Part shown: positions 26,381-53,881 of the stretch, one piece after another
Layout: each line of letters starts with the position of its first letter
Numbering within the stretch: position 1 is the stretch's first letter
Source of the DNA: a virus
Lineage: Duplodnaviria; Caudoviricetes
IMG/VR virus record: IMGVR_UViG_3300020037_006332
Coordinates: 8,561-72,560 of that record
Reading direction: 5' to 3' (one strand)
DNA: 64,000 bases
The notes under the pieces: generated by a model
What the model was told of the DNA's origin: nothing
What the model saw: the letters and a program-made list of their open reading frames with translations, nothing else
Database searches by the model: none
Made by a program: the position numbers and the translations under genes

Positions 26381-26456
26381 CCGTGCGGCTCCGTGGCGAG
26401 TGGGTTAAATATCGCCAGCATAGCGAGCGGATGGCGGGCCGGGAATGGGGCGGCCG

Positions 26457-26651
26457 TCAATCCCCTAGGAAAATCTCGTCGAATGCCCGCATAGCCAGCC
26501 AGTCGGTGCGTGCGTTGGGGTAAATTTCGCGGTCTACCAGTCGCGTAACCCACGGGCTGACCTTGACGCTCCAGAAACGCGGGGAGTTCTCCCGGACGTC
26601 CAGGGCTTCGGTGAGGTCGATTCGGACGCCAAAAAAGCTGGTTACGATCAT
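26457..26651 (-). CDS. IFL-motif small protein
   Basis: Ends AFDEIFLGD; ATGA coupling. Confidence 0.7.
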   Translation of the reverse strand: MIVTSFFGVRIDLTEALDVRENSPRFWSVKVSPWVTRLVDREIYPNARTDWLAMRAFDEIFLGD

Positions 26652-26848
26652 GGCAGGAAAATCCGCTCATAGGCGGCTTCAGCGGTCTGTTGCCGCTCGA
26701 ATTCGGCCAGCTCGGCTAGCTGCTCGGGAGTGTAGACGTAATAGGCCCCCTGGGCGTCGAGGATAAGGGAAATCTGCCCGTGCTGGCCCATGACTTGGTA
26801 GGGGGCGACGGGCCAGCTTTGGCCAGGGAAAACGAAATCGTCGCCCAT
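26648..26848 (-). CDS. IFL-motif small protein
   Basis: Ends AYERIFLP; TAATG coupling. Confidence 0.7.
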   Translation of the reverse strand: MGDDFVFPGQSWPVAPYQVMGQHGQISLILDAQGAYYVYTPEQLAELAEFERQQTAEAAYERIFLP

Positions 26849-27300
26849 TAGAGTTGCCGGACTGGTACCCCGTCGGTCGGTGCAAAGGACCACGCGAGAC
26901 AAAGTACCCAAACCACAAACGTCCAGCCGAAAACGATGTTGATGATAAACAGCATTTGCACGGTGCGGACGCCCCGGACCACGGCGATGATCGTGGGCAG
27001 CATGTAGGCCGAAAATCCGATCATGGCACAAATGACTAAAAACAGCTTGCCCAGCGGGGTGTCGATGCCCCGGACGGGCTCGGCGGCGGCCACGGTGACG
27101 GGCTCGGGGAACGGGTCCGGCTGGGGAGCGGTGGTTAAAACCACGGCCAGCATGAGTAGGGCCACGGCGGCCACGCCGGCGATGATGCCCACGGTAGCGG
27201 CCAGATTGTAGCGTGGCTTGGGCTTAATGCGGTAGATCGTGTGCCGGGGGACGGCTTGGGGGTTCAGGCCGTCGAATTGGATTGGGGGTTGGTCGGTCAT
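26848..27300 (-). CDS. Superinfection immunity (T4 Imm-like) membrane protein
   Basis: YMLPTIIAVVRG...LFIINIVFGWTFVVWVLCLAWS. Confidence 0.8.
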   Translation of the reverse strand: MTDQPPIQFDGLNPQAVPRHTIYRIKPKPRYNLAATVGIIAGVAAVALLMLAVVLTTAPQPDPFPEPVTVAAAEPVRGIDTPLGKLFLVICAMIGFSAYMLPTIIAVVRGVRTVQMLFIINIVFGWTFVVWVLCLAWSFAPTDGVPVRQL

Positions 27301-27659
27301 GGCTTGGCTCTTACGGGTTCGCGGTTGGGGTCGCCAAACTTCTGCGTGGCGTATTGGACCCACTGTTTTTCGGTTAATTCCAGGATGCCGCCAAAGTGCC
27401 TGATAAAAATCCCGGTTCCCGGGCTGGGCTGCTGGCTGGTGCAGGGCTCCATGAGAAACCATTTTTGGATGGCTAACAGCCAGTCGGCCCGGCATTCCTT
27501 GCAAACGTGCAGCGTGTAGGGCTCGCCGGCTCCGCCGCCGGCAAACGGGACGCCTTGTAACTCGCTCATGTCGTAGCCGCAAGCCATGTGCAGCGTGCGG
27601 CCGTCGCCGTCTAGGGCTTGCTTGCAGCGGTCGCATATCTGGGGCTTAGGTGTGTTCAT
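27297..27659 (-). CDS. Hypothetical Cys-containing protein
   Basis: CDRC and CKEC motifs; promoter at 27667-27695. Confidence 0.65.
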   Translation of the reverse strand: MNTPKPQICDRCKQALDGDGRTLHMACGYDMSELQGVPFAGGGAGEPYTLHVCKECRADWLLAIQKWFLMEPCTSQQPSPGTGIFIRHFGGILELTEKQWVQYATQKFGDPNREPVRAKP

Positions 27660-27666
27660 GCCCCTA

Positions 27667-27695
27667 GATATAGCCAGCGGTTAATTCCCTGTCAA
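27667..27695 (-). promoter_or_regulatory. Promoter with variant box (CGCTGGC)
   Basis: TTGACA-17-TATATC. Confidence 0.6.
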
Positions 27696-27699
27696 GGTT

Positions 27700-27783
27700 T
27701 CAGGGTGGCGGCTCTAGGGCGATAGTGAGCCCGATGACTCCGCCTAGAATCCAGGTGACCACTAGCACGGCGATGATGATCAT
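27700..27783 (-). CDS. Small membrane peptide (27 aa)
   Basis: MIIIAVLVVTWILGGVIGLTIALEPPP; ATGA coupling. Confidence 0.5.
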   Translation of the reverse strand: MIIIAVLVVTWILGGVIGLTIALEPPP

Positions 27784-28019
27784 GCTTTGGCCTTGCGGGG
27801 TGGTCCAGGGCCTTTGGGTGGCACCCCGGAATGACTGGGGCCGTCGATTTCGCGGGCGTCGCGGGCTACGGCCTGCTCGTAGGCTCGCATCGCTTGCCGC
27901 TCGAAAGCGAGCCAATGGCCTCGGGCGTCGTTAAGGGCCCGAAGCACGTCCACGGGCTTGCGGAATGCTTGCAGGGCTTCCAGCTCGGTCGCTAGGGCGT
28001 CTTCGATAGCCTTGCTCAT
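27780..28019 (-). CDS. Hypothetical protein
   Basis: 79-aa ORF with ATGA coupling. Confidence 0.6.
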   Translation of the reverse strand: MSKAIEDALATELEALQAFRKPVDVLRALNDARGHWLAFERQAMRAYEQAVARDAREIDGPSHSGVPPKGPGPPRKAKA

Positions 28020-29047
28020 GGTCCGCCGGTGGTGGTCGTGGTGGGGTAGAGGATCATGGTGCCATCGGGATAATTTCCGCCCCGGGCGTCCTTAATGGCG
28101 TCTTCGTCGTAGTTGACGGTTTTCGTGAAAACTCGCACGTCGGCGTCGTAGTATTCGGCTTCGATGCCGGGCGTGTAGTTAATTTTGCAGCGGGTGAACG
28201 TGAAATCGACGGTTCCTGAGCCGGAAAAATACCAGTTCGTGCCTAGTGCTGCAATCCGGGGGCAGCCATACGCTCCGCCCGCATAGACTACCCGCTGGCC
28301 GATAACGTCGACTTCGCAATCAGTGAGGGTCGTGGAGCCCAGTTTGTTGACGGCCACGGTGAGCACTCCGCCGGTGTCCGGGCTGGGCCCGCTGGACGTG
28401 CCCAGACTAGTGGAGCCATTGGCGTCGCCATAAAATCGCGTGCCGCTCACGATGATGGTTTGATCGGCTCCGCCGCCGCCGCCGGCTAGTGAAATGAATT
28501 GCCGGCAGAATCGCCCGATGCCGCCGGTCATGGTCACGCTTCGGGTGGTGTTTTCCCAGCTATAGATGCCCCAGTCGTGGCGGCTGGAGTCGATTTCGCA
28601 ATTGACTAGCTCCAGCTCGCCGGGGTCGTTGTTCTCGCCCTTCCAGCCCATTAGGCCGCCGTCTTCATCGGCATCCCAGCAAACCCCGCCCAAATAGAAA
28701 TTCTCAAAGCGTTGGAACGTCCCCAGACAAAACCCGGGGGTGGCGTCGCCCTTGGTGTAGCCGTCCAGGGTCGAGCCGTCGATGCGAACGTCGGTGGTCC
28801 AGCGGGCGGGGTTCGCTCGGCTGACACTGCGGAACGTGCAGGACGGGAGGACTAATTCCCGGGAGCGGCCAAAGTCGGCTCGGCCGGCACAGATAAAAAC
28901 GTCGGTGTCTTCGACTTCATCCCAGAGGCCGGTGAAAACGGTGCGGATTTGCTCGGCGGCGAGCGTGGGCCGGGGGGAAAGATAATAGGGCGGGTGGACG
29001 TTCACCCCGTTGCGGGTGAGCGTGATCGACGATGGTTGGCGGGTCAT
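28016..29047 (-). CDS. Putative right-handed beta-helix (pectin-lyase-like) protein ending in poly-Thr
   Basis: Repeating beta strands such as ELELVNCEIDS, VTMTGG, TTLTDCEVDV; C-terminus YPTTTTTGGP. Confidence 0.6.
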   Translation of the reverse strand: MTRQPSSITLTRNGVNVHPPYYLSPRPTLAAEQIRTVFTGLWDEVEDTDVFICAGRADFGRSRELVLPSCTFRSVSRANPARWTTDVRIDGSTLDGYTKGDATPGFCLGTFQRFENFYLGGVCWDADEDGGLMGWKGENNDPGELELVNCEIDSSRHDWGIYSWENTTRSVTMTGGIGRFCRQFISLAGGGGGADQTIIVSGTRFYGDANGSTSLGTSSGPSPDTGGVLTVAVNKLGSTTLTDCEVDVIGQRVVYAGGAYGCPRIAALGTNWYFSGSGTVDFTFTRCKINYTPGIEAEYYDADVRVFTKTVNYDEDAIKDARGGNYPDGTMILYPTTTTTGGP

Positions 29048-29074
29048 AATGCGAAATCCTTTTCGCGGGGTGGG

Positions 29075-29326
29075 TTAGTCCTGTTTCTTACACTTCCCTT
29101 GGCAGCAGCTCGTGGGGCTGGACTGTCGCCGAAATCGTTCGCGGCGGGCCTCCATTGTGAAATCCAGGATCATGTCGTTTACGCGGCTGATGCTGTAGGT
29201 GATATCGTCCGGGGTGGCCGTTTTATAGGCGTCCTGGAGTTTCTGGAGCATGTCACCGATAGCGGCCTCGATGGTCTTGTGCTCGCCTTCGCTGGCGGTG
29301 GCTTCGACTTCCTTGTCTTCGCTCAT
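29075..29326 (-). CDS. Hypothetical protein
   Basis: 83-aa ORF with GAGG RBS. Confidence 0.6.
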   Translation of the reverse strand: MSEDKEVEATASEGEHKTIEAAIGDMLQKLQDAYKTATPDDITYSISRVNDMILDFTMEARRERFRRQSSPTSCCQGKCKKQD

Positions 29327-29350
29327 GGGAGCCTCGGGGCGGTGCGGTGG

Positions 29351-30148
29351 TTAAAACAGGACTTCCTGAGCCAGTCTGTTGGCGGCAATCTCGCAATAGC
29401 GTTCACTGACGTCTATACCGATGGCCTTTCGGCCTAGGTCTTTCGCGGCCCGAAGCGTGGTTCCGCTGCCCATGAATGGGTCCAGGATCATATCCCCTTC
29501 ATTCGACCAACTGCGGATGTGGTCCGCCGCAAGTCGCTCTGGAAACTGTGCCGGGTGCTTTCGGTTTATGCTGCTCATTTCTGGGCTGATTTCCCAGATA
29601 TTAAAGCGTATGCCGTAATCGCCTAGCGGCTTCCCCTTGTGTGGCTTTCGGATCAATTCGCCGCCCTTGGTCCTGATGGTTGCGGATTTCCCATTAGCTC
29701 CGGCCTTGCGGTTTAGTCGATCCCTGATTGGGTTGAATGTCTTCGGCTTTCCAGCCGACAGAATAAACATGAATTCGGAGACTGGGCCGTATCTTACGCT
29801 CGTTGAGCCTACTGCCGTAAACCCCCCTTTGCTCCATATCATTGTATCGTGCAGCCGATACCCTAATTCCTTGAAACGCAACGCCTGTTTGAAGCTGCTG
29901 CCGGTTTTATCGCCGTCTTTGGTCTCGTCGTTGACTATCCAAACGGTAACTCCCCCAGCCGCTAATGCCGTCAACAGCGGGATGGCAATTCCGTCGAAAT
30001 CCCATTGATATCCGTCGTAATCACGAATGTTGTCGTAGGGCGGTGAAGTGACGGCAAGGTCTATCGTTGCTGGCGGTAGTCCGGCCACAATTTCCCGGCA
30101 ATCCCCGTGGTAAATCGTGATTCCTTCGTGCTCATAATACGGCTTCAT
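29351..30148 (-). CDS. DNA methyltransferase, N4/N6 family, beta class (SPPY suggests m4C)
   Basis: IYHGDC, DLAVTSPPY, KHPAQFP, ILDPFMGSGTT. Confidence 0.92.
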   Translation of the reverse strand: MKPYYEHEGITIYHGDCREIVAGLPPATIDLAVTSPPYDNIRDYDGYQWDFDGIAIPLLTALAAGGVTVWIVNDETKDGDKTGSSFKQALRFKELGYRLHDTMIWSKGGFTAVGSTSVRYGPVSEFMFILSAGKPKTFNPIRDRLNRKAGANGKSATIRTKGGELIRKPHKGKPLGDYGIRFNIWEISPEMSSINRKHPAQFPERLAADHIRSWSNEGDMILDPFMGSGTTLRAAKDLGRKAIGIDVSERYCEIAANRLAQEVLF

Positions 30149-30149
30149 C

Positions 30150-31208
30150 CTACGGGAGCCTCGGGGCGGTGACGTTGGGGTAGGTCGGGCTTTTGGTGGC
30201 GTCGCGGAGCAAGGCAATTACAGCCTGTTCATCGGCCGGGGTCCAGCCCTGGGGGTTAATTCGGCGGTCGATAAATTCGTCCCGCTGGTTGCTGAAGCCA
30301 ATCGCCCCGCCCACGTTGTAATGCCGGACCACGCGGGCAAGGTCGGGCATTCGGCCATTGTGGGCATATGGGGCAGTCTTGGCCAGCTCGGCCCACGTGG
30401 CGGTTTTGAAGGCCCGGACGTTGGGGGCGGTGCTGACCACGTTGGCCCGGCCTAGGTCGGTGCTGGCTCCCTTGGTCGCCAGCTCCATGCCGTTATTGTG
30501 GAAAGCGTAGTCGGTGAAAAATGGGGGCGTGTGGCAGGTATAGCAGCGGGCCCGGGTGGTCAACTGGAAGCCGCGTTCCTGCTGGGGCGTGAGGGCCTCC
30601 AGGTCGCCCCGTAAACGCTTGTGGAGCGGCGTGTCGAAGTTCCATACCAGCGTCGTCTGGAAGCTGGCTAGAGCGTGCCCGAAACGGTCCTGGTCGATAG
30701 GGCTGAGTCCGTTGGCCTTCATGCCGTACGCTTCGGCGAAAAGCACGTTGTAGCCGAAATTGCGGCGGAGCCGGTTAATTACGTCCTGGAGGCTTTGGTC
30801 GCCCATTTCCAGGTTGTTGGCCACGGGCAGTAGGGCTTGGTCGGCGAGCCCGATGGTGCGTCCATCGTGGAATAGCAGGGGGCTATAGGCGGCGTTCAGG
30901 ATCGTGGGGCTGTGGCGGTTGCCGGTGCGGCCCAGAATGCCCACGGCCTCGGCGAGCGGCTGGGCAAAGCCAAACCGGGGATCGTGGCAGGTGCTACAGC
31001 TTACGGTGAATAGCCGCTGTCCGCCCACGTCGACCGGGGCGGATAGGCGGGGATCGAAAAACAGCTTGCGGCCCAGCTCGACGCGGGGGCCGGTGACCGG
31101 GACGTTTAACGGCGGGGCGATAGGGGGCTGGGCTGAAACGTGTGGCGACACAATCACGGCCCAAACCACGGCTACCGCCGCCGCCGTCAAACCTAGAGCC
31201 TGTCGCAT
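30150..31208 (-). CDS. Di-haem cytochrome c peroxidase (CcpA/MauG family)
   Basis: Signal peptide, LGRKLFFDPRLS, CSTCH, RHSPTILNAAY, CYTCH, TAPYAHNG. Confidence 0.9.
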   Translation of the reverse strand: MRQALGLTAAAVAVVWAVIVSPHVSAQPPIAPPLNVPVTGPRVELGRKLFFDPRLSAPVDVGGQRLFTVSCSTCHDPRFGFAQPLAEAVGILGRTGNRHSPTILNAAYSPLLFHDGRTIGLADQALLPVANNLEMGDQSLQDVINRLRRNFGYNVLFAEAYGMKANGLSPIDQDRFGHALASFQTTLVWNFDTPLHKRLRGDLEALTPQQERGFQLTTRARCYTCHTPPFFTDYAFHNNGMELATKGASTDLGRANVVSTAPNVRAFKTATWAELAKTAPYAHNGRMPDLARVVRHYNVGGAIGFSNQRDEFIDRRINPQGWTPADEQAVIALLRDATKSPTYPNVTAPRLP

Positions 31209-31261
31209 CCTAATCGCCCTCCGATGGCTAAAGCCGGGCGGGGCGGTTGGGAGAACGGCCC

Positions 31262-31843
31262 TTAGACCGGCAATCCTAATAGCTTCTTGATGGCCGCCAG
31301 AATGATCGGCACGAGTTGCGGCCCCAGCTCATTTGCGAATTGTAGCAAAAGATTGACCACGGCCTCCCAGATTGCCGTATCCGGGAGCGTGCCAACAGCT
31401 TCGGCCTGGGCAGTGTAGGCCGCCTTGGTTTCGCTGGTGGCGGGGACGTGGCGGGACTGGAGGGCCTTGGCGTAGCTGTAGGGGTCATGGGCTCCGCGAA
31501 TGGCCACGGCCTGGGCGGCTCCCATCTGGCCCAGATACTTGGTGAGCAATTGTAGCAGCAGGGGCAGGGCCACGGGGCCGGCTTCCGCAATCAGCTTGCC
31601 GATCATTTCGCTGATGCCGCCCTTGAGGGCGTCCAGGATCGGGCGGGGCTTGGGCGGGGCGTTGGGGTCGGCCGGCGGGCGGGGGAAGAAAATCCCCAAA
31701 GCCTCGACTAGCTCGCCGTCGGTCATTTCGTGCGGTGCTCGGGTGAAGTCCAGTGGCTCGGCCGGCAGTTGGGCCGGCTCGATGGCTTCGACTTCGGGCA
31801 GGTTCTCGTGTTGGTCGTTGGGCTTGCTGTGCTTGGCGTTCAT
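31262..31843 (-). CDS. Hypothetical protein with two amphipathic helix repeats
   Basis: AEAGPVALPLLLQLLTKYL and NELGPQLVPIILAAIKKLL; ATGA coupling. Confidence 0.65.
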   Translation of the reverse strand: MNAKHSKPNDQHENLPEVEAIEPAQLPAEPLDFTRAPHEMTDGELVEALGIFFPRPPADPNAPPKPRPILDALKGGISEMIGKLIAEAGPVALPLLLQLLTKYLGQMGAAQAVAIRGAHDPYSYAKALQSRHVPATSETKAAYTAQAEAVGTLPDTAIWEAVVNLLLQFANELGPQLVPIILAAIKKLLGLPV

Positions 31844-32922
31844 GTTGCATCGCTCCATGCTTTGGAATCGGGAAGTGGCACCCCCGTTAGTGTCCAGCGG
31901 TGGCCCAGAAAATCAATGGGGCCTAGGGTCTGAGTTTCGCCGGGCTGGGGATCGGCCGGGAGGGTTGGGATCGGGGTAGTCGGGGGCGGGGCGGCGTCCT
32001 GGATGTATTTCAGGGCGTTGACCACGCCATAGCCCCAGTCTTGGCTGGGGAGGGTTCCGCCGGTGAGCGGCGTGGCGGTGCCGGTCATAAGCCGCTCAAA
32101 CTCGCCTTGGGTTAATTTCTTGCCGGTCGAACGGAGTAGGGCGGCGACGCCTGCGATAAACGGGGTGGCCATGCTCGTGCCGTCCAGGTAGGCGTATTTT
32201 CCGCCGGGCCAGCAGGATAGCACTTGCACGCCGGGAGCCATCACGTCGACCTGGGGGCCACGGCTGGAGAAGCTGGCCACGCGACGCTGTTTGTCGATAG
32301 CTCCCACGCCTAGGGCCAGTGAGCCCCATGCGGCCGGATATCCGATAGTGCTGATCGTGTGGCCGGTGCGGGGGTCCACGACTTTGCCGTCATTGCCCAC
32401 GGCACAAACCACCAGAATGCCGGCCTGGATACATTGCACCAGCTCGGCCTGGATTTCGGGGCTGGGGTCGGGGCTGCCTAGGCTCATGCTGACCACGTGG
32501 CACCCGTCCTGGCGAGCGAAGCGGAGCCCTTCGGCAATCCAGCTCCATGAGCCTGAGCCATCATTGCCCAGCACTTTGTAGATCGCTAGCTCGCACTTGG
32601 GGGCCACGCCTTTGATGCCCCGGCCGTTATCGCGGCTGCCGATGGTGCCGGCGGTATGGGTGCCGTGTCCGTTGACGTCGGTGACGTCTTTGGGGCCGCC
32701 GCTAGAGGTTAAATTCCGGGCGACGGCAATGGCCCCCTGGAAATCCGGGTGATTCGTGTCGATGCCGGTGTCCAGGACTCCCACGCGGCAATTCTCGCCC
32801 CGGTAGGTCATGCCCCACGCGGCTTCGACGCCTAGCTCGGCGATGCCCCACGGGTTGACTTCGCCCACTTGCTGGGCGGTGGCGGTGGCGGAGACGGTAA
32901 AGGCGGGTAGCTTCCAGCTCAT
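31840..32922 (-). CDS. S8 subtilisin-like serine protease
   Basis: Catalytic motifs VLDTG, HGTHTAG, GTSMATP. Confidence 0.93.
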   Translation of the reverse strand: MSWKLPAFTVSATATAQQVGEVNPWGIAELGVEAAWGMTYRGENCRVGVLDTGIDTNHPDFQGAIAVARNLTSSGGPKDVTDVNGHGTHTAGTIGSRDNGRGIKGVAPKCELAIYKVLGNDGSGSWSWIAEGLRFARQDGCHVVSMSLGSPDPSPEIQAELVQCIQAGILVVCAVGNDGKVVDPRTGHTISTIGYPAAWGSLALGVGAIDKQRRVASFSSRGPQVDVMAPGVQVLSCWPGGKYAYLDGTSMATPFIAGVAALLRSTGKKLTQGEFERLMTGTATPLTGGTLPSQDWGYGVVNALKYIQDAAPPPTTPIPTLPADPQPGETQTLGPIDFLGHRWTLTGVPLPDSKAWSDAT

Positions 32923-32950
32923 GGGTGCCATCCTTGACGGGTGCGGTGGG

Positions 32951-33196
32951 TTAGCCGGGTAGCATATCAGTTTCGGGCAGAAAAATCCCCTCCAGTGTGC
33001 TGGCGAATTCGCGGCGGTCGAGCATGTCCTGGACGACTTTGCGAAACTGGTCGGCACCTTCTTGGACTGCCGGCCAGCCGGCATGTTGGATATACCCCGC
33101 CGGGCTGTTGACGTATTCCAGCCGGCCATGCTTGAGGAAAGCCCTCCAGCCGGGGAAATCGGGATGCGTCACGAATTCAGATAGCAGGATGCTCAC
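32951..33196 (-). CDS. IFL-motif small protein
   Basis: Ends TLEGIFLPETDMLPG. Confidence 0.65.
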   Translation of the reverse strand: MSILLSEFVTHPDFPGWRAFLKHGRLEYVNSPAGYIQHAGWPAVQEGADQFRKVVQDMLDRREFASTLEGIFLPETDMLPG

Positions 33197-33350
33197 GGCG
33201 TTCGGCCTTCAGGCGTTTGATTTCGCGGGTTAAAACGCGGGTGCTGCTCACACAAATGCGGCGGACGGCCTCGTGGTAGGTGTTCGGCCGGAGCCGGTAT
33301 CCCTCGCGGGTCGCGGCGTGGATCACTTTCGCGGCTTGGCGGAGTTTCAT
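33177..33350 (-). CDS. Small basic hypothetical protein (57 aa, below the ORF-track cutoff)
   Basis: MKLRQAAKVIHAATREGYRLRP...; ATGA coupling. Confidence 0.5.
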   Translation of the reverse strand: MKLRQAAKVIHAATREGYRLRPNTYHEAVRRICVSSTRVLTREIKRLKAERREHPAI

Positions 33351-33586
33351 GGGGTGACTCCCTTGTTCAGCACGTCCACGGCCTGCTGGATGACGTTCCA
33401 GGTCGCTGGCTGCTGGGTGCTTTGCTGGACGTAACTCAAAATCCGTAGTGCCTCGTGGATCGCTTCCCCACGCTTCACTGACTCGCTCCAGGCTGCCGCT
33501 GCTCTAGCTTCTGCATCGTGGACGGCTTCGCGGTAGCCCTGTTCTTTGCACTGTCGGCAAATGGCGTCGTATTCGACTAAATTCAC
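33347..33586 (-). CDS. Hypothetical protein
   Basis: 79-aa ORF. Confidence 0.6.
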   Translation of the reverse strand: MNLVEYDAICRQCKEQGYREAVHDAEARAAAAWSESVKRGEAIHEALRILSYVQQSTQQPATWNVIQQAVDVLNKGVTP

Positions 33587-33651
33587 GGCTTGGCCCTCTA
33601 GGGTTAAAATCCAGCCCCAGCAGCGGCCGGTAGGGCCGTGGGCACAGATAC

Positions 33652-34047
33652 CTACTCGGGTCGCTGCTGGGGTTCTGGGGTGTCGTGGGGTGCGTAAGCG
33701 GCCACCATCGTGGCCTGGATGTAGCCGGCCTTGAAAGCCTTGGCAATCAGGTCGTGGACGTCGGGGGCGTAGCGGTTGGGGTGTATCTTCTGCTGCTTAC
33801 ACCACTCGGTATAAAGTTCGCTGATCTTCGGGCGTTGTTCGCTAGTCGGCCCCTGGATTGCAAGCCGTTTAGCCTGCGACCGGGAAACCGCTGGCGGATA
33901 GGTCATTTCGATGAGTTTAGCGGTTTTCTCGGTAACGGCGGGGTGGCTGCTCTCGCTCGCGGCTGCCTCGCATCGCTTGCGAAATTCAGCTCTCTGCTCG
34001 GCGGGGTAAATTTCCAGGACTCGGCAGGCTTGGGGTTCCCAGTTCAT
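33652..34047 (-). CDS. Hypothetical protein
   Basis: Start at MNWEPQ in an ATGA overlap. Confidence 0.65.
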   Translation of the reverse strand: MNWEPQACRVLEIYPAEQRAEFRKRCEAAASESSHPAVTEKTAKLIEMTYPPAVSRSQAKRLAIQGPTSEQRPKISELYTEWCKQQKIHPNRYAPDVHDLIAKAFKAGYIQATMVAAYAPHDTPEPQQRPE

Positions 34048-34409
34048 GGGCTCGGGGCTCCTAAAAACAGCTCGTCGAACGTCTGTTGGATGTTCATGTC
34101 GTGGAATTTCTCTTGCCACGCGGGCGGGAGTTTGTCGACGAAAAACCACCATGTCTGGACTTCCAGGGCGGTGAGTCGGGCGGCGAGCACAATCTGCCGG
34201 CCGTCGTCTCGGCCGCCGTCGTCGTCATAGCTGGCTGTGGCCAGCAGTGCCATGCGGGGGTAGTTGAAAAACGTGCGTTCATCGTTCGCTGGGTCGCTCG
34301 GCGTCCAGTGCTCGATTCGCTTGCTGGGGTAAAGCTGCTTGATCTTATGGCGTAGGTCCGGGATGTGCTCGACTCGCTGCATGGACGTGGGGCGGTAGTA
34401 CTGGATCAT
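34044..34409 (-). CDS. IFL-motif protein (LYP...HW...TWWF subfamily)
   Basis: Ends TFDELFLGAPSP. Confidence 0.75.
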   Translation of the reverse strand: MIQYYRPTSMQRVEHIPDLRHKIKQLYPSKRIEHWTPSDPANDERTFFNYPRMALLATASYDDDGGRDDGRQIVLAARLTALEVQTWWFFVDKLPPAWQEKFHDMNIQQTFDELFLGAPSP

Positions 34410-34735
34410 GCTCGGCCCTTTCGGCGGCGTCGGCGGCGGTTGGTGTCCATCGGCTGGGTTCTCGGCTCGGGCTCGGGCTGGACCCCTAGGAAAATCTCGT
34501 CGTAGTTGGCCTGGGCGGCGTCTCGGCTAGCCAGCTCATTCACGCGGCCCTGGATTTGGTCCAGCTTGAGCCGCGATTCGCTGGCCAGCTCGGAATGCTT
34601 GAACTGCCGTTCCGCTAGATGGCTGTTGGCTTCGACTAGGGCCTTGAATAGAGCGTATTTCATGGCCACGGCCACAAAGCAAAATACGGTCAAGCCGGTT
34701 AGCCAAACGGTGAGCACGATTTCGATGGCTGTCAC
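34406..34735 (-). CDS. IFL-motif protein with N-terminal TM and coiled coil
   Basis: Contains NYDEIFLG near the C-terminus; GTGA coupling. Confidence 0.7.
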   Translation of the reverse strand: MTAIEIVLTVWLTGLTVFCFVAVAMKYALFKALVEANSHLAERQFKHSELASESRLKLDQIQGRVNELASRDAAQANYDEIFLGVQPEPEPRTQPMDTNRRRRRRKGRA

Positions 34736-35106
34736 TGGGGTGCCCCTAGGAAAATGCGTTCCAATGTCTCGTCCAGCACGCCGGGCCGGAATTGGGTGGG
34801 CACTTCGTCGGCTTTGAACCACCATGTCCGCACGGCCAGCACTTCGCCCTTGACGGTGGTTAGGCGTCCCATGAGGTAATTCGTGCCTATCCCGGTTAGG
34901 TTCGGGGCAGTCGCTAAAGCCTCGATTTTCACGCCCCTGGTCGGTCGCCAAAATTCCAGCACGGCCTGCTTATAGTTGGCCATGCTGGGCGGGCTCCAGT
35001 GCAGGATTCTGGCCCTGGGGTAAAGTCTGGTTAGTTGCTGGTGTAGCTGCTTGGTGGAGGCGTATGGCGTCACGGCTGGCATTCCGCAAATCTCGGTCTG
35101 GATCAT
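34732..35106 (-). CDS. IFL-motif protein (LYP...HW...TWWF subfamily)
   Basis: Ends TLERIFLGAPQ. Confidence 0.75.
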   Translation of the reverse strand: MIQTEICGMPAVTPYASTKQLHQQLTRLYPRARILHWSPPSMANYKQAVLEFWRPTRGVKIEALATAPNLTGIGTNYLMGRLTTVKGEVLAVRTWWFKADEVPTQFRPGVLDETLERIFLGAPQ

Positions 35107-35282
35107 GGCCCGGGCTCCCGCTTTGGGGGTTCGGGCGACAATTGCTCACGGGCCCAGCGGTGCCACTCGGCGTCCCATTTGGCGTCGGGCTCGTCGCTGG
35201 CGGGGAGCTGGCTTTCGTCGATGATCTTGCCCACCTTGAAGTATGGCAATCGCGGGGGCTGCGGCTGGCGTTCGTCGGGCAT
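35103..35282 (-). CDS. Small hypothetical protein (59 aa, below the ORF-track cutoff)
   Basis: MPDERQPQPPRLPYFKVGKII...; ATGA coupling downstream. Confidence 0.5.
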   Translation of the reverse strand: MPDERQPQPPRLPYFKVGKIIDESQLPASDEPDAKWDAEWHRWAREQLSPEPPKREPGP

Positions 35283-35284
35283 GG

Positions 35285-35716
35285 CTAGTGGTCCCGTTTC
35301 TTGGCTTTCATGGTTTCCAGGATCGTGATTAGCTGCTGCTTCATGGCTGCCACGGCGGCGGTGATTTGCTCGCCGCTCATGCCCATCATTTGCATCGCGG
35401 CCCTGGTCTTAAAGGCCGATTCCGGGTGCAGAATGTTGGTCGAAACCAGCATAAAACTTTCGTTGGGCGTGGTGCCGGCCTCAAACTCGGCTACGGTCTT
35501 CTCCCCCCATGCGTCGGTTTGCTGTTCGGCTTCTTCGCCGGTCTTGGCCACGCAGATGAGTTTCACGCGGTCGGTATAGATCACGAGCCCGGCCCAGATT
35601 TCGCCCCACTTCTCGCGTCCGATTTCCAGGATTTTGCGGCTATCGCCTTCCTCGATGGCCTGCTCTAGCTTGCTGGTCTTGGAATTGGCAAACCAGCGTT
35701 TCAGGAACGTGCTCAC
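35285..35716 (-). CDS. Hypothetical protein
   Basis: 143-aa ORF after the promoter at 35762-35789. Confidence 0.7.
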   Translation of the reverse strand: MSTFLKRWFANSKTSKLEQAIEEGDSRKILEIGREKWGEIWAGLVIYTDRVKLICVAKTGEEAEQQTDAWGEKTVAEFEAGTTPNESFMLVSTNILHPESAFKTRAAMQMMGMSGEQITAAVAAMKQQLITILETMKAKKRDH

Positions 35717-35761
35717 GTCTATTGCCCCCTTTTTTTATATAGTTATTTTGGTCTGTCGCTG

Positions 35762-35789
35762 ATTATATAGCGAGCGTACTTAGATGCAA
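35762..35789 (-). promoter_or_regulatory. Promoter with CGCTCGC box
   Basis: TTGCAT-16-TATAAT. Confidence 0.7.
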
Positions 35790-35794
35790 GATGG

Positions 35795-36037
35795 TTAATT
35801 CCCGGGCTGGCCTAGGAACGTGTCCTCTAGGGTCTGGTCGAATAGCTGGCGGCGGGCGTATTCGGCTAAATGGGGCTCAATAATGGCTTTCCAGCCCTCG
35901 TCGAGCCTGACCGGCTCCTGGATGCCTGGAATCCAAAGCTGGTACTGCCGGCCGTGGGTTCCGGTTTCCACGGGGGCGGCAAAGGCGATGCGGGCGGGGT
36001 CCAGGAAAACGCCTTTTCCTAGGTCAATGAGGGGCAT
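35795..36037 (-). CDS. IFL-motif small protein (TFL variant)
   Basis: Ends TLEDTFLGQPGN. Confidence 0.7.
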   Translation of the reverse strand: MPLIDLGKGVFLDPARIAFAAPVETGTHGRQYQLWIPGIQEPVRLDEGWKAIIEPHLAEYARRQLFDQTLEDTFLGQPGN

Positions 36038-36407
36038 TTTGGCCTCGATTCGTTAGGAAAATCTGGTCGAACACTTGGCCGCAAGTGAGGTCGTCCATCT
36101 TGCGAAGCGTGATTCCGGGCGGGGCTGGGGACGTTTTCAGCCAAACCCACCATCCCCGGATGGTCTTTGTTTCGTGGCGAATGCAAGCCACTAGGTAGGC
36201 CGGGCCGGCGGCACCGCCGGTGACGTCGGGGGCCGTGTGCACGATCACGTATTCAGGCTGGCCGGGGGCCAGCCAAAATAGCTCGTTCAGGTCCAAGCGG
36301 TTGCCGCCCGGCAATCCCCTCCAGACGCCTACCCAATGTTCGTATCGGTAGCCCGGGTGCAAGCCGACTAGGTGGTCGATGGCTCGGTCCATGTCGCTTT
36401 TGCTCAT
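36024..36407 (-). CDS. IFL-motif protein
   Basis: LHPG...WW; ends VFDQIFLTNRGQNAPH. Confidence 0.75.
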   Translation of the reverse strand: MSKSDMDRAIDHLVGLHPGYRYEHWVGVWRGLPGGNRLDLNELFWLAPGQPEYVIVHTAPDVTGGAAGPAYLVACIRHETKTIRGWWVWLKTSPAPPGITLRKMDDLTCGQVFDQIFLTNRGQNAPH

Positions 36408-36751
36408 GCCTGCCCCCCTAAGAAAATGGCGTCATAGGCTTGCTCTAGTGCCTCGCTGGGGGCTTTATGCTCCTGGATGATCGGGTCGGTTCGCCGGCTG
36501 GCTCCCTCAGTAACCCACCAGAAGTCCGTGCGGCTGCCGTTGGCGGTGGCCATGAGGTACTGGGGGACTTCTTCGTCGGTGGCCGCAATCAGCGTGGTCC
36601 GGCCCGGGGCGGGGTGATTCAGCACGGTGTCAGTGTGCACAAACCGGCCGACGGGGAAACGCTTCCGCAAACCCGCGATGGCCTTGTCCGATTGTTCCTC
36701 GATGCGTGTGACACGCAAGCCGGGGACTAGGGCGTAGGTGAATTCGCTCAT
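36404..36751 (-). CDS. IFL-motif protein
   Basis: RFP...FWW; ends AYDAIFLGGQA. Confidence 0.75.
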   Translation of the reverse strand: MSEFTYALVPGLRVTRIEEQSDKAIAGLRKRFPVGRFVHTDTVLNHPAPGRTTLIAATDEEVPQYLMATANGSRTDFWWVTEGASRRTDPIIQEHKAPSEALEQAYDAIFLGGQA

Positions 36752-37113
36752 AGGAAAATCCGCTCCAGCTCCCGGGTGAAGTCTACGGCGTGCAGGTCAA
36801 GTTCCCGGATCGGCGGATAGGCGGCTACGTCGGGGTGTGTTTCGTGGTCGGTGTAGTAGCTGACGTCGCAATAGCCTACCCGGTGGACGCGGATATAAAT
36901 CGGGTAGTCGGCGTGCATGTTGGCCCCCGGGTGCACGGCCCGGTAGCCTGTGAGCCGGTAGTAGGTAAATGGCCCCTGTCTCGCTGGTTCCTTTTGGTAA
37001 AAAAAATAGTCGCTATGCTTGGCCCATTCGAGATAGACCATTGCGACGCGAAGGGCCTTTCGCAGAATGTCCACGAATTCAGCGTTTTGGTCTTTGGTGT
37101 GAATGAGTGGCAT
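36748..37113 (-). CDS. IFL-motif protein
   Basis: Ends ELERIFL. Confidence 0.75.
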   Translation of the reverse strand: MPLIHTKDQNAEFVDILRKALRVAMVYLEWAKHSDYFFYQKEPARQGPFTYYRLTGYRAVHPGANMHADYPIYIRVHRVGYCDVSYYTDHETHPDVAAYPPIRELDLHAVDFTRELERIFL

Positions 37114-37116
37114 TGG

Positions 37117-37599
37117 TTAAAATTCCCAGCCGGGGACGGCTTTGCTGAAAAATCCCGCTAGGGCTCGATAGGCTTTTTCGTCGATCACTACCAGCTTGAC
37201 GGCGGGGTGATACTTGGCCATGCGTTTGATCTTGGTTTTACTGCGGCCGTCCATGTGGCCTTTGACTTCGTGAAACTCGACGCGGCCGTCGGGTAGGGTG
37301 ACTTTGAAATCGGGCAGGTAGCTGACGCATCCCCGTTTGACTCCGGCAAACCAAAATGTTTCGGGCTCGTGGGCCCAGTCCTGGATATCGCCACGTTGCT
37401 TTTGCCACTCCAGATAGCGGGCGTAGTTGGCTTCCCATTTGGATCGGTAATATTTCTTTTGGCCTCCAATCTCTTGCCACGACGCTCGCCACTTTCGGGC
37501 CGCTGGGGATTTCGGGGGCGGTGCCTTGCGGGCCTCGGTTAATTTCCGGGCCAGCTCGGCGGCGTCCAGGCTAGGCGTCGGGGCTTTCTTCTTGGTCAT
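37117..37599 (-). CDS. PD-(D/E)XK nuclease (DUF1064-like)
   Basis: YYRSKWEANYA...YLPDF...FHEVKG. Confidence 0.8.
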   Translation of the reverse strand: MTKKKAPTPSLDAAELARKLTEARKAPPPKSPAARKWRASWQEIGGQKKYYRSKWEANYARYLEWQKQRGDIQDWAHEPETFWFAGVKRGCVSYLPDFKVTLPDGRVEFHEVKGHMDGRSKTKIKRMAKYHPAVKLVVIDEKAYRALAGFFSKAVPGWEF

Positions 37600-38131
37600 C
37601 GCGGGGGCCTTCCGTGGCTGGCTCCTTGGGTTCGGTCAAGTGGTCCAGCTTGGCCTGGAGTTGCTCGACTTGAAACTCCAGGCTTTTCAGTCGGGCTAAA
37701 ACCACGCCGGTGGCAAAGCAAAGCCGGTCCATCGCGTCGGCCTTTGGATCGTCGTCCGGGCTGTTGCTGTAGGTGTGCAGCTCGACGCGGCGGGCGAGCC
37801 ATGTTATCCGGTCTTGGAGGACTTCAATATCGCCGGTTTCGAGGACTGCGGAATCGAGTGGCATAGGGTCGGGCTCTTTCTTGTAGGTGGTGGTGGTTTT
37901 GGTTTCGGTGAATCGCGGTTCTTCGTTGGCGGCGTAGGCCCGGGTGGTTTCTCGCCAACTGGCTAGGGTGTCTTGCTCGTGCTGGCGGCCGTCGGCTCGG
38001 GCCAGCCGGAGGATCAATAGAAATAGGGCCATGCCGGTGAGTAGGCCGGCGATGGCGTAGGAAACCCCGTGGGGGTCGTTCTGGTGGAGCCACGCGGGCC
38101 ACTGGTGCCAGTCGGCGGGGAGTGGTGTCAT
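37571..38131 (-). CDS. Membrane-anchored coiled-coil hypothetical protein
   Basis: One TM helix and a C-terminal coiled coil. Confidence 0.65.
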   Translation of the reverse strand: MTPLPADWHQWPAWLHQNDPHGVSYAIAGLLTGMALFLLILRLARADGRQHEQDTLASWRETTRAYAANEEPRFTETKTTTTYKKEPDPMPLDSAVLETGDIEVLQDRITWLARRVELHTYSNSPDDDPKADAMDRLCFATGVVLARLKSLEFQVEQLQAKLDHLTEPKEPATEGPRDDQEESPDA

Positions 38132-38514
38132 CGGGCGGCCTTGGCCTTTCGTTTGACGTTCTTGGCCTCGGGATTGCCCACGACGTAGCCCAGCCGGGCG
38201 ATGGTCCGATTCCAGCAGGCGGCCAGCTCTCGGGGCCGGTTCTCGCGGTCGTCGTTAATCTGCACGACGCTGGGGAAACGGTGGTAGTAGTTCATGCTGA
38301 CCCCGCAGCTCCGAAGCCCCATTCTTTCGGCCTCGGCAAATAATCGCTTTTCCAGGGATGCAGCTAGCGGGCTATCCCAGCCCACGCATTCCAGGACCCA
38401 TCCACTGAGACAATGCCGCCGGCCCTCGCCATATTCGTTGCGGATAATGTCACTGCTTTCCAGGACGGGCATGGTGTCCGGGTATTTCCGTAGGTTCTTT
38501 TTGATCTTCTTCAT
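38128..38514 (-). CDS. Hypothetical protein
   Basis: 128-aa ORF with ATGA coupling. Confidence 0.65.
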   Translation of the reverse strand: MKKIKKNLRKYPDTMPVLESSDIIRNEYGEGRRHCLSGWVLECVGWDSPLAASLEKRLFAEAERMGLRSCGVSMNYYHRFPSVVQINDDRENRPRELAACWNRTIARLGYVVGNPEAKNVKRKAKAAR

Positions 38515-38960
38515 GGGTTTCCCTTTCCTAAAAAAATCTCGTGTAGGTTGTGATTGACGGGGGTGAAAACGTGGTGCTCGCTGCCATATCGGACTAGCTC
38601 GTCAATTCGCTGGCGGGTGCGGGGGTTGCGTTTGGCTAGCGTTTCCAGGACTCCCTGCCAGCCGTTGTGGTGCGGCCGGTCTTCGTGCAGGTAGGACGTT
38701 ATGAATAGTTTTCGCGGGGCCCGGGCGGTGGGTGTGAATTGCAGCTTCCCCACGGCTAGCATCCAGCTCCCGAAGTTGTGTGAGCAATAGGCATGGGCCG
38801 TTCGCACGGGACTGAGGGGATCGAAATATCTCACCAGCGAAATCGACGAACAAAGGGGCCCTATGCTTTCCGCGAATGTCCAGCCATCCACCACGAATTG
38901 GATTTTCTCGCCGGGGTATAACTCCCGGAATGTCTCCAGCGGTAGGGTGCTAGTTCTCAT
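38511..38960 (-). CDS. IFL-motif protein
   Basis: LYPG; ends NLHEIFLGKGNP. Confidence 0.75.
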   Translation of the reverse strand: MRTSTLPLETFRELYPGEKIQFVVDGWTFAESIGPLCSSISLVRYFDPLSPVRTAHAYCSHNFGSWMLAVGKLQFTPTARAPRKLFITSYLHEDRPHHNGWQGVLETLAKRNPRTRQRIDELVRYGSEHHVFTPVNHNLHEIFLGKGNP

Positions 38961-39268
38961 GGCAGAAAAATCTCGTCCATCGTTTTCTGGATTCGCATAT
39001 CGGCTAATTGCTTCTGGAGCCGCTCGCGTAGGTTCTTATTGAGTTGCTTTAGGCTCCAGTCGCCATTGTCGACCACGCGGGCCCAAACGGTTTTGGTGTC
39101 ATGGTTGACGCGGATAATGACAAGCCCACCTTCCGGCCGCTCGTAGATTTCAAAGGCTTCCAGCGGGGCGTTTAGGAAAGCCCGGCGGGCCATAAAAACG
39201 CGATAGGTGTAGCCGGGGTATCTCCGGCGGGCGATGGTGGCCAGTCTTTCGACGTAGAAATCTCGCAT
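38957..39268 (-). CDS. IFL-motif protein
   Basis: RYPG; ends TMDEIFLP; start could alternatively be 39286. Confidence 0.75.
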   Translation of the reverse strand: MRDFYVERLATIARRRYPGYTYRVFMARRAFLNAPLEAFEIYERPEGGLVIIRVNHDTKTVWARVVDNGDWSLKQLNKNLRERLQKQLADMRIQKTMDEIFLP

Positions 39269-39276
39269 GGTCGGCA

Positions 39277-39305
39277 ATCCTATCATCCGCTCGCTATACT
39301 TGCAA
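39277..39305 (-). promoter_or_regulatory. Promoter with TATAGCGAGCG box after the -35
   Basis: TTGCAA-17-TAGGAT. Confidence 0.55.
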
Positions 39306-42187: not shown

Positions 42188-43306
42188 CTAAAATGGGATA
42201 TCGTCGTGTGTGGGGAATGCCTGTTTCTGTTCGGGCGGGGCGGCCGGCTTGGGGTCGGCTTTCTTGGCGGCCTTCTTTTCGGCGGCGGCCATTTCCTTGG
42301 CCTCGCGGGCCTTGCCGGCTTGGTCCAGGTTAATTTTCTGGGTCTGCTCGGTGGCTCGCATGGCTAGCTCGCCCTGGGTCTGGTCGAATAGCTCCCGGAG
42401 GTCGTGGGGGGCTAGGCTGGTGTCGACGGCTTTGATCTGGCTGCCGAATTCTTGCACGGCGTCGTGCACGGCTCCCCGGGTCTGGGCCCGTTCGATCTGT
42501 TGGGTGGCGGCCTCGATGATTTCCCCCAGCTTGGCCTCGACGGCTATCACGTCGATTTCGGGCCGCTCGGGTACGGGGCTGCTCTCGACGTCGATCACTT
42601 CCTCGGGCCGGCTGGCCTTGCGGCCCTTGCGTAGCTTGGCGGTGGCGGCCTGGAGCGTGGCGGCCGGTGCCGGCAGGTTGGCGGCGGCCCGGCTTTCGTT
42701 GATCTGCTCCATGTCTTCCTCGGTGACCACGCCGAGAATGATTTCGGGAGCGTGCCGGCGGGCCCATTTGATCGCCCCAGTGTAGGTGATTTTCTGCTGG
42801 GGGTCTTTCTTCCAGGCGTCGTTAGTGGTCCTGTGATCGCCCACCCGGGCGGTGACGGTGCGGTCGAAATCCTCTCCCTCGAAGCGGCCGGAGACGGTGA
42901 CGGTGAGGTCGTCGCCGGTGCCGGTGTAGTCGTACCGCAAGCGGCCCACTAGGCCAGCTCGGGCGTTGATAACCCCGGCCACCAGTTTGCCCTGGAAAGC
43001 CAGCTTTCCGCCCACGACGTAGGTTTCGGGGGTGAGGCTAAACGGGTCCATTTGCCAGCGGAATGCCTGTGAGCAAATGAGGAAACAGTTACCTACCACT
43101 TCCTCGAATTCAAACCGCCGTTCTTTATTGCGGGTCAAGTGGTCCGGCAGCACGGACGCCGATGCCATGATCTTGGCCACGCGGTAGAGGGCGTTATAGC
43201 GGTCGGTGTCCAGCAGGTAGCCCAGCGGGCTGTCGTCTTTGTTGACACTCAGCCGGCGGGGCTCGGGGACGGTGACGGCGGTGCTAGGCTGGGGCTCGGT
43301 GCTCAT
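42188..43306 (-). CDS. RecT-like single-strand annealing protein
   Basis: GNCFLICSQAFRWQMDPF...YVVGGKLAFQGKLVAGVI...WARRHAPEIILG; adjacent to YqaJ. Confidence 0.7.
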   Translation of the reverse strand: MSTEPQPSTAVTVPEPRRLSVNKDDSPLGYLLDTDRYNALYRVAKIMASASVLPDHLTRNKERRFEFEEVVGNCFLICSQAFRWQMDPFSLTPETYVVGGKLAFQGKLVAGVINARAGLVGRLRYDYTGTGDDLTVTVSGRFEGEDFDRTVTARVGDHRTTNDAWKKDPQQKITYTGAIKWARRHAPEIILGVVTEEDMEQINESRAAANLPAPAATLQAATAKLRKGRKASRPEEVIDVESSPVPERPEIDVIAVEAKLGEIIEAATQQIERAQTRGAVHDAVQEFGSQIKAVDTSLAPHDLRELFDQTQGELAMRATEQTQKINLDQAGKAREAKEMAAAEKKAAKKADPKPAAPPEQKQAFPTHDDIPF

Positions 43307-52771: not shown

Positions 52772-53881
52772 TTACACGAAATTCGCGTCCGGCGGGGCCG
52801 GGTCCACGGCGTAGGCCATCGCCTGATTCTGGGCGTTGAACGGGCAGCGTTCGCATCCCGTGGCGTCAAAGTCGGCCATCCCGGCCTGAGACTCTTTCCA
52901 GAGGTCGCGGAAGCGTTTCCCTTCCAGGCTGCCAATCAGCCCGGAATCGTTGTAGGCCAGCGTGCAGCAGCGGTATACGTTCAGGTCGCCGCCGACATAG
53001 GTGTTAGCCTGTTGATACCAGCAGCGGTGGTAGTCGGGGCGGCCTTGCTGGAGGTCACTGTAGCGGCTACCGAAGTTATTCAGCACGGCAAACGTGCCGG
53101 GGACGTCGCGGGTTTGGGCGGCCTCTAGTAGCTCGTGGATTTCGTCTAGCAGGCCAGCGTAGTATTGAGCCCCGTCGGGCTGGAAATAGGCCCCCAGCCG
53201 GATATTGTCGGCCCCGGCCTCTTTGGCTCGGTCGACGGCCAGCAGGATTTCGCGGTAGTTTTCGCGGGTGACCACGAAGCTAACCCCTAGGCGGAGTTTG
53301 GTCCCCATGCCGTTTTTCTTGTCGGCCAGCATGGCCACGTTCCGCCAAGCGGCCTCGAAGTGTTGGGTGCTGACGTTGCGGGTCACGGCGTAGGTTTCGG
53401 GCTTCCCGGCGTCGATGCTGACGCGGACCCACTTGGCAAAAACTAGGGCCTGGAGCGTGTCGGCATTCCAGCGGACCCCATTCGAGACTAGGGCTAGGTC
53501 CATATTGCGATGGTGCACGGCCTCGAAAATCTCGACGTGGTGCGGGTGCACGGTAGGCTCGCCGCCGCCGGTGATCTGGATCGCTTTGACCCCCATTTGC
53601 TGGCAGTCTTCCAGGATTTCGATAACCTTGCCTAGCGGGATTTTCCGGTTGGGGTTATTGTTGACCACGCCGAAAGCGTTGGTTTCCCCGAAGCGTTGAT
53701 TAGAGCTGTAGCCGGGCATTCGGAAAGCACAGAATCCGCAGCTTTGGTTGCAGAGGTCGCTGATAACTAGCTGGACTTGCACGGGGGCGGCGGTCTTGCC
53801 GGCTCGCCATGCCTTCACGCGGTCGGGGTGGTGGATGATCTTTAGCGGCGAGTAGGGGCTGGCCGGGTGAGGTCGTTCCAT
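52772..53881 (-). CDS. Radical SAM protein with SPASM/twitch domain
   Basis: CNQSCGFC, ITGGGEPT, C-terminal C..C...CERCPF. Confidence 0.9.
   Translation of the reverse strand: MERPHPASPYSPLKIIHHPDRVKAWRAGKTAAPVQVQLVISDLCNQSCGFCAFRMPGYSSNQRFGETNAFGVVNNNPNRKIPLGKVIEILEDCQQMGVKAIQITGGGEPTVHPHHVEIFEAVHHRNMDLALVSNGVRWNADTLQALVFAKWVRVSIDAGKPETYAVTRNVSTQHFEAAWRNVAMLADKKNGMGTKLRLGVSFVVTRENYREILLAVDRAKEAGADNIRLGAYFQPDGAQYYAGLLDEIHELLEAAQTRDVPGTFAVLNNFGSRYSDLQQGRPDYHRCWYQQANTYVGGDLNVYRCCTLAYNDSGLIGSLEGKRFRDLWKESQAGMADFDATGCERCPFNAQNQAMAYAVDPAPPDANFV

Follow-up and report, generated by a model that had tools for sequence, protein, structure and literature searches.

Twelve small proteins encoded in a 64,000-nucleotide stretch of the viral record IMGVR_UViG_3300020037_006332 (Duplodnaviria; Caudoviricetes; positions 8,561 to 72,560 of the record, hereafter the window) end in, or close to, the same short motif, [FYLM]-[DEH]-x-[ILT]-F-L, after which comes Gly, Pro, Thr or the stop codon. 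The window comprises most of a 72.5-kb IMG/VR contig that is approximately 86% complete, and its minus strand holds nearly all genes, including the twelve open reading frames (ORFs) concerned (64–149 residues, between 26457 and 39286). The motif recurs in a related phage, on metagenome contig L003, where it is retained even if the remainder of the protein has diverged or been replaced. It is likely a lineage-specific C-terminal recognition tag, and we estimate the probability that it serves as a docking handle at roughly 50%.

Occurrence of the tag

All twelve ORFs, first listed with their endings in a reading made from the sequence alone (the sequence-only reading), were recovered at the same coordinates on the minus strand. 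The comparison with shuffled sequence suggested there was carried out with a strict six-frame pattern, [FYLMIVW][DEHQ]x[ILTVM]FL, and 50 shuffles. The window contains 15 matches, against a mean of 1.3 (maximum 4) in the controls, and 12 of these 15 are the genes listed below, all of them real ORFs with the tag near the C-terminus. At the DNA level, the core ATTTTYYTR occurs 14 times where 2.6 occurrences are expected. No further tagged genes were found in the rest of the window or in the remaining 8.7 kb of the contig. The tag is present on about half of the approximately 24 small genes in the region that separates the replication/recombination module from the late genes; it is missing from structural, replication and recombination genes. 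Its distance to the stop codon is 0–26 residues, rather than 0–21 as originally proposed, the extreme being g5 with 26 residues after the Phe-Leu pair.

The tagged genes are given below in their order on the minus strand, with the positions of the six tag codons after each ending. The long ORFs of g2 and g5 overlap upstream genes, and both genes therefore probably start internally.

g12, 38957..39286, minus strand: 109 residues; ends TMDEIFLP at the stop (38963-38980); stop overlaps the g11 start (ATGA); no detectable homologue in L003, where the gene at the same position, L003:5550-5903, likewise ends FERIFLP at its stop.
g11, 38511..38960, minus strand: 149 residues; NLHEIFLG followed by four residues (38529-38546); orthologue L003:5900-6343, 79% identity, tag identical.
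g10, 36748..37113, minus strand: 121 residues; ELERIFL (36751-36768), Phe-Leu being the last residues of the protein; no homologue in L003; body unrelated to other carriers by hhalign.
g9, 36404..36751, minus strand: 115 residues; AYDAIFLG followed by three residues (36419-36436); orthologue L003:7724-8071, 35% identity, ending MDRIFLA at the stop.
g8, 36024..36407, minus strand: 127 residues; VFDQIFLT followed by eight residues (36054-36071); LYP..WW family.
g7, 35795..36037, minus strand: 80 residues; TLEDTFLG followed by four residues (35813-35830); orthologue L003:8406-8645, 60% identity, ending LEDVFLE followed by four residues.
g6, 34732..35106, minus strand: 124 residues; TLERIFLG followed by three residues (34747-34764); LYP..WW family; overlaps at its stop with the GTG start of g5; orthologue L003:9334-9678, 34% identity, ending FDRIFLGA at the stop.
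g5, 34406..34735, minus strand: about 109 residues from GTG 34735; NYDEIFLG (34487-34504); orthologue L003:9681-10004, 46% identity, layout kept.
g4, 34044..34409, minus strand: 121 residues; TFDELFLG followed by four residues (34062-34079); LYP..WW family; orthologue P0006 (L003:10001-10339), 42% identity.
g3, 32951..33196, minus strand: 81 residues; TLEGIFLP followed by seven residues (32978-32995); directly upstream of the S8 protease gene; orthologue L003:11046-11270, about 58–60% identity.
g2, 26648..26857, minus strand: about 69 residues, probable start 26857; AYERIFLP at the stop (26654-26671); stop overlaps the g1 start; weakly similar (E = 0.002) to L003:5550-5903 in the C-terminal half of the latter.
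g1, 26457..26651, minus strand: 64 residues; AFDEIFLGD at the stop (26466-26483); its positional counterpart in L003, 17955-18146, cannot be aligned in the body yet ends ERIFLGD at its stop.

Conservation of the tag and turnover of its carriers

An exhaustive HMMER profile search of 1.8 billion representatives yielded one outside homologue, P0006, encoded on the 71-kb contig L003. A word-indexed family-profile search of 5.8 billion proteins returned self matches only, and scans of IMG/VR with g6 and with a neighbouring protein of 282 residues identified no relatives. Two DNA runs labelled wastewater and activated sludge contained short contig pieces (600 and 341 bases) that match the window exactly, but no new variant of the tagged array; no RNA run was listed as containing the sequence. 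L003 is syntenic with the window and has ten tagged genes in the same region, at positions that match. The survey of related contigs for family size and turnover, also suggested in the sequence-only reading, thus rests on one relative with ten tagged genes, in which the tag outlasts the bodies.

Across seven orthologue pairs, 35 of 42 tag residues are conserved (six residues per tag), compared to 355 of 695 residues in the bodies (Fisher p = 4e-5). In both phages together, the Phe and Leu are invariant in 22 of 22 tags, and an acidic residue is present in 20 of 22. The two phages share a 5.5-kb block of 95% identity, which encodes a YqaJ exonuclease, a RecT-like protein, an HNH protein, a replication initiator and the 282-residue protein. 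Identity drops exactly at the start of g12, from 95% upstream (window 44751-39280) to 67–84%, or to unalignable sequence, downstream. From g12 to g1, identity to the best L003 match is 0, 79, 0, 35, 0, 60, 34, 46, 42, 60, 0 and 0%, which is lower than for the untagged neighbours, with a median of about 65% (Mann-Whitney p = 0.008). At three syntenic positions the bodies are not recognisable as related and both are tagged, i.e. g12 and L003:5550, g1 and L003:17955, and the g10-g8 block versus L003:7724-8406. As the proposed variability of the carriers had implied, no other genes of the region are as divergent or as often replaced as the tagged ones, and their replacements keep the tag.

The constraint acts on the peptide

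Among conserved residues of the seven orthologue pairs, a synonymous codon change was found for 12 of 35 in the tag and for 119 of 355 in the bodies. This rate is equal, and the constraint is therefore on the peptide and not on the DNA or RNA, in agreement with the earlier claim that the motif is selected as peptide. The g3 pair is illustrative, with five synonymous differences over the seven conserved residues L-E-G-I-F-L-P, four of them within the six-residue tag. The proposed use of synonymous codons was borne out for Phe (TTC/TTT) and Leu (CTA/CTG/TTA), which vary among tags. It does not hold for Ile, which is encoded by ATT in 10 of 10 window tags and in 8 of 8 L003 tags bearing Ile (18/18), so that codon use is not free; genome-wide, ATT accounts for 47% of Ile codons after a G-ending codon, and ATC is about equally common. 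Avoidance of GATC was considered as the cause of this uniform ATT, and given that genomic share it explains only part of it.

These codon skews could also be read as traces of a nucleotide element at gene junctions (a start-associated sequence, a ribosome-binding enhancer, a recombination boundary or a frameshift site), with the peptide as by-product. The tag lies 0–17 nucleotides ahead of the next start codon in 8 of the 12 window genes and, besides the fixed Ile codon, Gly is mostly GGR and Leu never CTC. However, the motif is in frame in all 22 tags of both phages, as had been claimed for the window, and its synonymous sites change as often as those of the bodies. Moreover, at least six different codons are used at the hydrophobic first position, and the distance to the next start ranges from 0 to more than 75 nucleotides, four window tags having no nearby start. 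The scarcity of GGC in the tags is partly due to the total avoidance of GCGC in this genome (0 in the window, approximately 330 expected), which forbids GGC-GCx. A nucleotide junction element is largely refuted by the comparison of synonymous changes, and we consider it very improbable. Frameshifting by -1 at the U-rich tag was likewise rejected, as only g11 contains a canonical slippery heptamer and an open -1 frame over such short distances.

Four 6-bp palindromes, AAGCTT, ACCGGT, ACGCGT and AGGCCT, are also absent from the window. Judged from sequence, their absence together with that of GCGC is a strong signature of restriction avoidance.

Protein bodies and predicted structures

Pfam and PHROGs searches assigned none of the twelve proteins to a family. 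With the tags removed, BLAST within the window linked only g4, g6 and g8 (the LYP..WW family), and the bodies of both phages together fell into 12 BLAST clusters. Profile-profile comparison (hhalign) joined g9 remotely to the LYP..WW family (P = 0.002) and revealed a weak N-terminal L..L[YF]P helix match among g11, g12, L003:5550 and L003:8068 (P 0.02–0.04); it gave nothing for g10, g7, g3, g5, g2 and g1.

The AlphaFold2 (AF2) model of g4 (predicted local distance difference test score, pLDDT, 81) shows a beta-sheet and, after it, a helix (96-116) with the Leu of the tag at its end. In the model of g7 (pLDDT 72), five short strands precede a 29-residue helix (47-75) that also ends at the tag Leu; this helix is longer than the small sheet, and pLDDT falls toward the tag. 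The motif had been proposed to be helical, and in both models it indeed forms the end of the C-terminal helix. In a wide structure search, g4 and g7, which are unrelated in sequence, had the same weak neighbours (Z<=5.4). These are chromodomain/Sso7d-like chains whose C-terminal helix packs on a small sheet. Foldseek with the g4 model returned nothing from PDB and BFVD at E<=0.001; the ESM Atlas contained no usable match for g11, and its own model of this protein is poor.

The g5 protein has a different layout. An N-terminal transmembrane helix (Kyte-Doolittle hydropathy 2.38 at residue 6) leads into a helical region; the tag comes next and is followed by a PEPEP linker and a tail of six Arg. 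The part after the tag (34406-34486, linker and six Arg) is conserved in the orthologue, despite the low identity of the body.

Of the body types distinguished in the sequence-only reading, the diverged paralogues were found (g4, g6 and g8, with g9 as a remote member), whereas a panel of unrelated folds is made less likely by the g4 and g7 models, which are alike. Its carrier with transmembrane segment and coiled coil corresponds to g5, in which a transmembrane segment and a helical region make up a different architecture. Many carriers may form one very old, fast-diverging family, to which g5, with its clearly different architecture, stands in contrast.

A recognition handle or the signature of one family

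In the explanation that we favour, the tag forms the last two turns of a C-terminal amphipathic helix, closed by the helix-breaking Gly or Pro, with the hydrophobic positions i, i+3 and i+4 on one helix face and the acidic residue beside them. The carriers constitute a birth-and-death array, in which most members are small proteins of a beta-sheet and a helix that either diverge very fast or are exchanged for others, and in which g5 is a membrane-anchored helical protein. Selection holds the tag constant through divergence and replacement of the bodies, most likely because one slowly evolving partner, of host or phage origin, recognises all carriers by it. The tag could then serve for docking or for degradation, a degron being one particular form of such a handle. 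The motif, the constraint on its peptide, its helical position at the C-terminus and the turnover of its carriers are observed here, whereas binding to a partner, and to which one, is inferred from them.

Alternatively, nearly all carriers could descend from one small protein with a beta-sheet and a C-terminal helix, the tip of which closes the protein's own core or makes homo- or hetero-oligomers; no external reader would be involved, and g5 would have gained its C-terminus by recombination with a family member. We regard this explanation, which the sequence-only reading had named as refuting its own proposal, as unlikely but as one to be reckoned with. The clear paralogy of g4, g6 and g8, the remote link to g9 and the weak N-terminal helix match common to four other proteins are in line with it, as are the tandem gene arrangement, which duplication predicts, and the g4 and g7 models, both with a sheet and then a long C-terminal helix and both matching structures in which that helix is packed on the sheet. 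These structural matches may, however, reflect only a common arrangement, given their low Z-scores. The W-W core signature of the LYP..WW family is missing from the other carriers, and the g7 helix is too long for full packing, with confidence falling at the tag. One conserved partner is favoured over packing in the protein's own core because an invariant Phe and Leu and a conserved acid are common to bodies that have no other alignable position, which is unusual for a core helix: cores of diverged paralogues normally tolerate exchange among I, L, V, M and F and lose a solvent-side acid, and own-core packing therefore fits less well. Two further reasons are that the tag survives gene replacement, and that it is also found on the membrane-anchored g5 and its orthologue, which have no beta domain to pack against.

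Several observations weigh against the docking handle. The g4 and g7 models share one architecture and the same weak structural neighbours; judged from these models, most carriers may be one family with a partly structural C-terminal helix, and the tag helix of g4 probably lies on the sheet. The tagged pairs differ more than the untagged pairs at four-fold sites too (0.41 vs 0.30), and their divergence therefore partly reflects older or mosaic-exchanged alleles and not only fast protein evolution. The exclusive use of ATT for Ile is not explained by a peptide model. Only two tagged phages were found among billions of proteins, which leaves little comparative power and no test of co-variation. 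Finally, no partner was identified, and the two phage-encoded candidates considered below are not backed by co-occurrence.

A more specific version of the docking handle, which we put forward tentatively as possible but rather unlikely, is a lineage-specific address code: one reader, either a host hub or a phage protein such as the MIDAS-bearing vWA/MoxR pair, would grip rapidly renewed small accessory proteins by their six-residue helix end. The carriers might be anti-defence or host-takeover effectors, new effectors would become functional by keeping or acquiring the tag, and through g5 this reader would also be anchored at the membrane. Should the tag be a handle for one partner, it would open a dozen ORFan phage proteins to functional study together and show that a fixed docking code can serve phages to arrange their fast-evolving accessory genes. 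If it is only the structural tip of a single diverged family, what remains is the lineage-specific expansion of a gene family.

Candidate readers encoded by the phage

As stated in the sequence-only reading, the phage encodes a MoxR AAA+ protein together with a vWA protein (phrog_1297/phrog_1314), the latter fused to a zincin-like domain:

45466-46890, minus strand: zincin-vWA protein (DUF2201), partner of MoxR, with a long Gly/Asp/Glu-rich linker.

As reader, the vWA protein would capture the acid of the tag at its metal ion-dependent adhesion site (MIDAS), and the MoxR ATPase would remodel or release the tagged proteins. All MIDAS residues are kept (D336, S338, T395, D429), and the tags present an acidic residue beside a hydrophobic face. 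Peptide capture by vWA followed by MoxR action is an accepted general mechanism, with which such a reader would agree, and some vWA-MoxR systems are accompanied by small, rapidly diverging proteins with conserved C-terminal peptides (PMC7159879). In contrast, the distant phages L022 and L023, which have the same DUF6744-MoxR-vWA block as this phage, show neither an IFL tag nor another shared tail in about 20 kb each, and the pair is widespread in phages. The zincin domain has RDxxR at residues 84-88 instead of HExxH, where its family has near-invariant H, E and H; a role in processing is therefore unlikely. Altogether, we find this reader improbable.

The tag could also be a recognition or cleavage site (substrate signal or degron) for a phage S8 subtilase, the gene of which follows g3 directly and lies within the array in both phages. 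The catalytic triad of this enzyme is intact and it has no prodomain; subtilases in general favour large hydrophobic P1 residues. On the other hand, the relatives L025, L026 and L027, which carry an S8-CCP module, have no tag in the stretches scanned, three window tags end 0–1 residue before the stop and leave nothing to trim, and the would-be P4 residue is not hydrophobic for either plausible P1. The S8 enzyme seems an even poorer candidate than the vWA protein.

The subtilase belongs to a module at 30150-32931 on the minus strand, which further encodes a protein of about 200 residues and a CCP/MauG di-haem peroxidase, and which is conserved in the more distant phage-sized contigs L025 and L026. 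A C-terminal extension of the S8 protein contains a tag-like PIDFLG (PIDFMG in L003). The CCP gene was tried as an indicator of the host, but its nearest matches are only 33–38% identical (Acidobacteriota, Myxococcus) and too weak for this purpose. Names on homologues of the zincin-vWA and S8 proteins point to Planctomycetota, though not firmly.

Promoter-like boxes and neighbouring genes

A short promoter-like box delimits and divides the tagged array:

39288..39298, minus strand: promoter-like box TATAGCGAGCG, immediately upstream of g12, at the start of the tagged array.
35766..35776, plus strand: another copy of this box, which separates g7 from the next gene and divides the array into operons.

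The TATAGCGAGCG box is also found at 26419, after the end of the array. With one mismatch allowed, the box TAYAGCGAGCG has 19 sites in the window (2 expected), in both orientations and mostly intergenic. The sharp mosaic boundary with L003, at 39280-39298, coincides with the first of the boxes listed. A gene for an N6/N4 DNA methyltransferase (29351-30148, minus strand) has no counterpart in the syntenic part of L003, where other small genes are found.

Comparison with known systems

The tag differs from the bacterial beta-clamp motif (QL[SD]LF or QLxLxL) in that Gln is found at position -3 in only 5 of 22 tags and in having one extra residue between the acid and the Ile-Phe pair. The C-terminal tip of SSB, an acidic run ending in I-P-F, is read by many genome-maintenance proteins and likewise represents an acidic-plus-hydrophobic C-terminal peptide that serves as common handle. 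The SSB tip needs the free carboxylate of its last Phe, whereas the helical IFL tag lacks Pro-Phe and has 0–26 residues after it. A classic tip of the SSB type is present elsewhere in both phages, on a RecT-like single-strand annealing protein (42188-43306, minus strand, and L003:1520-2632) that ends in HDDIPF; this ending suggests a link into the host SSB-interaction network.

Short sequences that recur at gene junctions are reportedly also found in Cluster K mycobacteriophages, as start-associated sequences, i.e. conserved nucleotide elements at a fixed distance upstream of the start of many genes. Here, in contrast, the frame is constant, the distance to the start is variable and synonymous sites vary freely. 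The capsid-targeting sequences of T4 internal proteins and the C-terminal cargo-loading peptides of encapsulins are short common peptides that send unrelated cargo to one receptor surface. The tag has no sequence similarity to these peptides. The tagged genes are located in the early/accessory region rather than with the head genes, and nothing indicates that their products are packaged.

Small proteins of the FxSxx-COOH type, with a zincin peptidase, have been linked to vWA-MoxR conflict systems (Kaur et al. 2020, PMC7159879). As in the array described here, these proteins are small and diverge rapidly and the C-terminal peptide is their conserved part; this phage, too, encodes MoxR, a zincin-vWA protein and a radical-SAM/SPASM enzyme. 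However, the motif is different, the only zincin-like domain found here has RDxxR for HExxH, and no tag was seen in the scanned stretches of relatives that have the MoxR/vWA pair. The radical-SAM/SPASM gene (52772-53881) lies at least 13 kb from the tagged array and is generic, with no specific maturase family above the cutoff.

To our knowledge, docking through shared tails has been described for only a few proteins of T4 and T7, which act in replication and transcription. The sequence-only reading knew of no described system like the present one; this is not so for the principle, since shared C-terminal tails read by one hub are already known, but the use of this motif on a dozen ORFan accessory proteins with fast turnover was not found in the literature searched. 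The closest parallel, and a precedent for docking, is in T4, where gp43, gp33 and gp55 bind the gp45 clamp through similar hydrophobic-acidic C-termini that can be exchanged among them (PMC2988020). Pfam scans of the larger ORFs of the window, which belongs to an incomplete contig (see above), detected neither a clamp nor a polymerase nor a clamp loader. In both phages a C-terminal peptide that is short, hydrophobic and acidic is present on several proteins of one phage, but in T4 these are three replication/transcription proteins with a known phage hub, gp45, whereas here they are a dozen small proteins with fast turnover.

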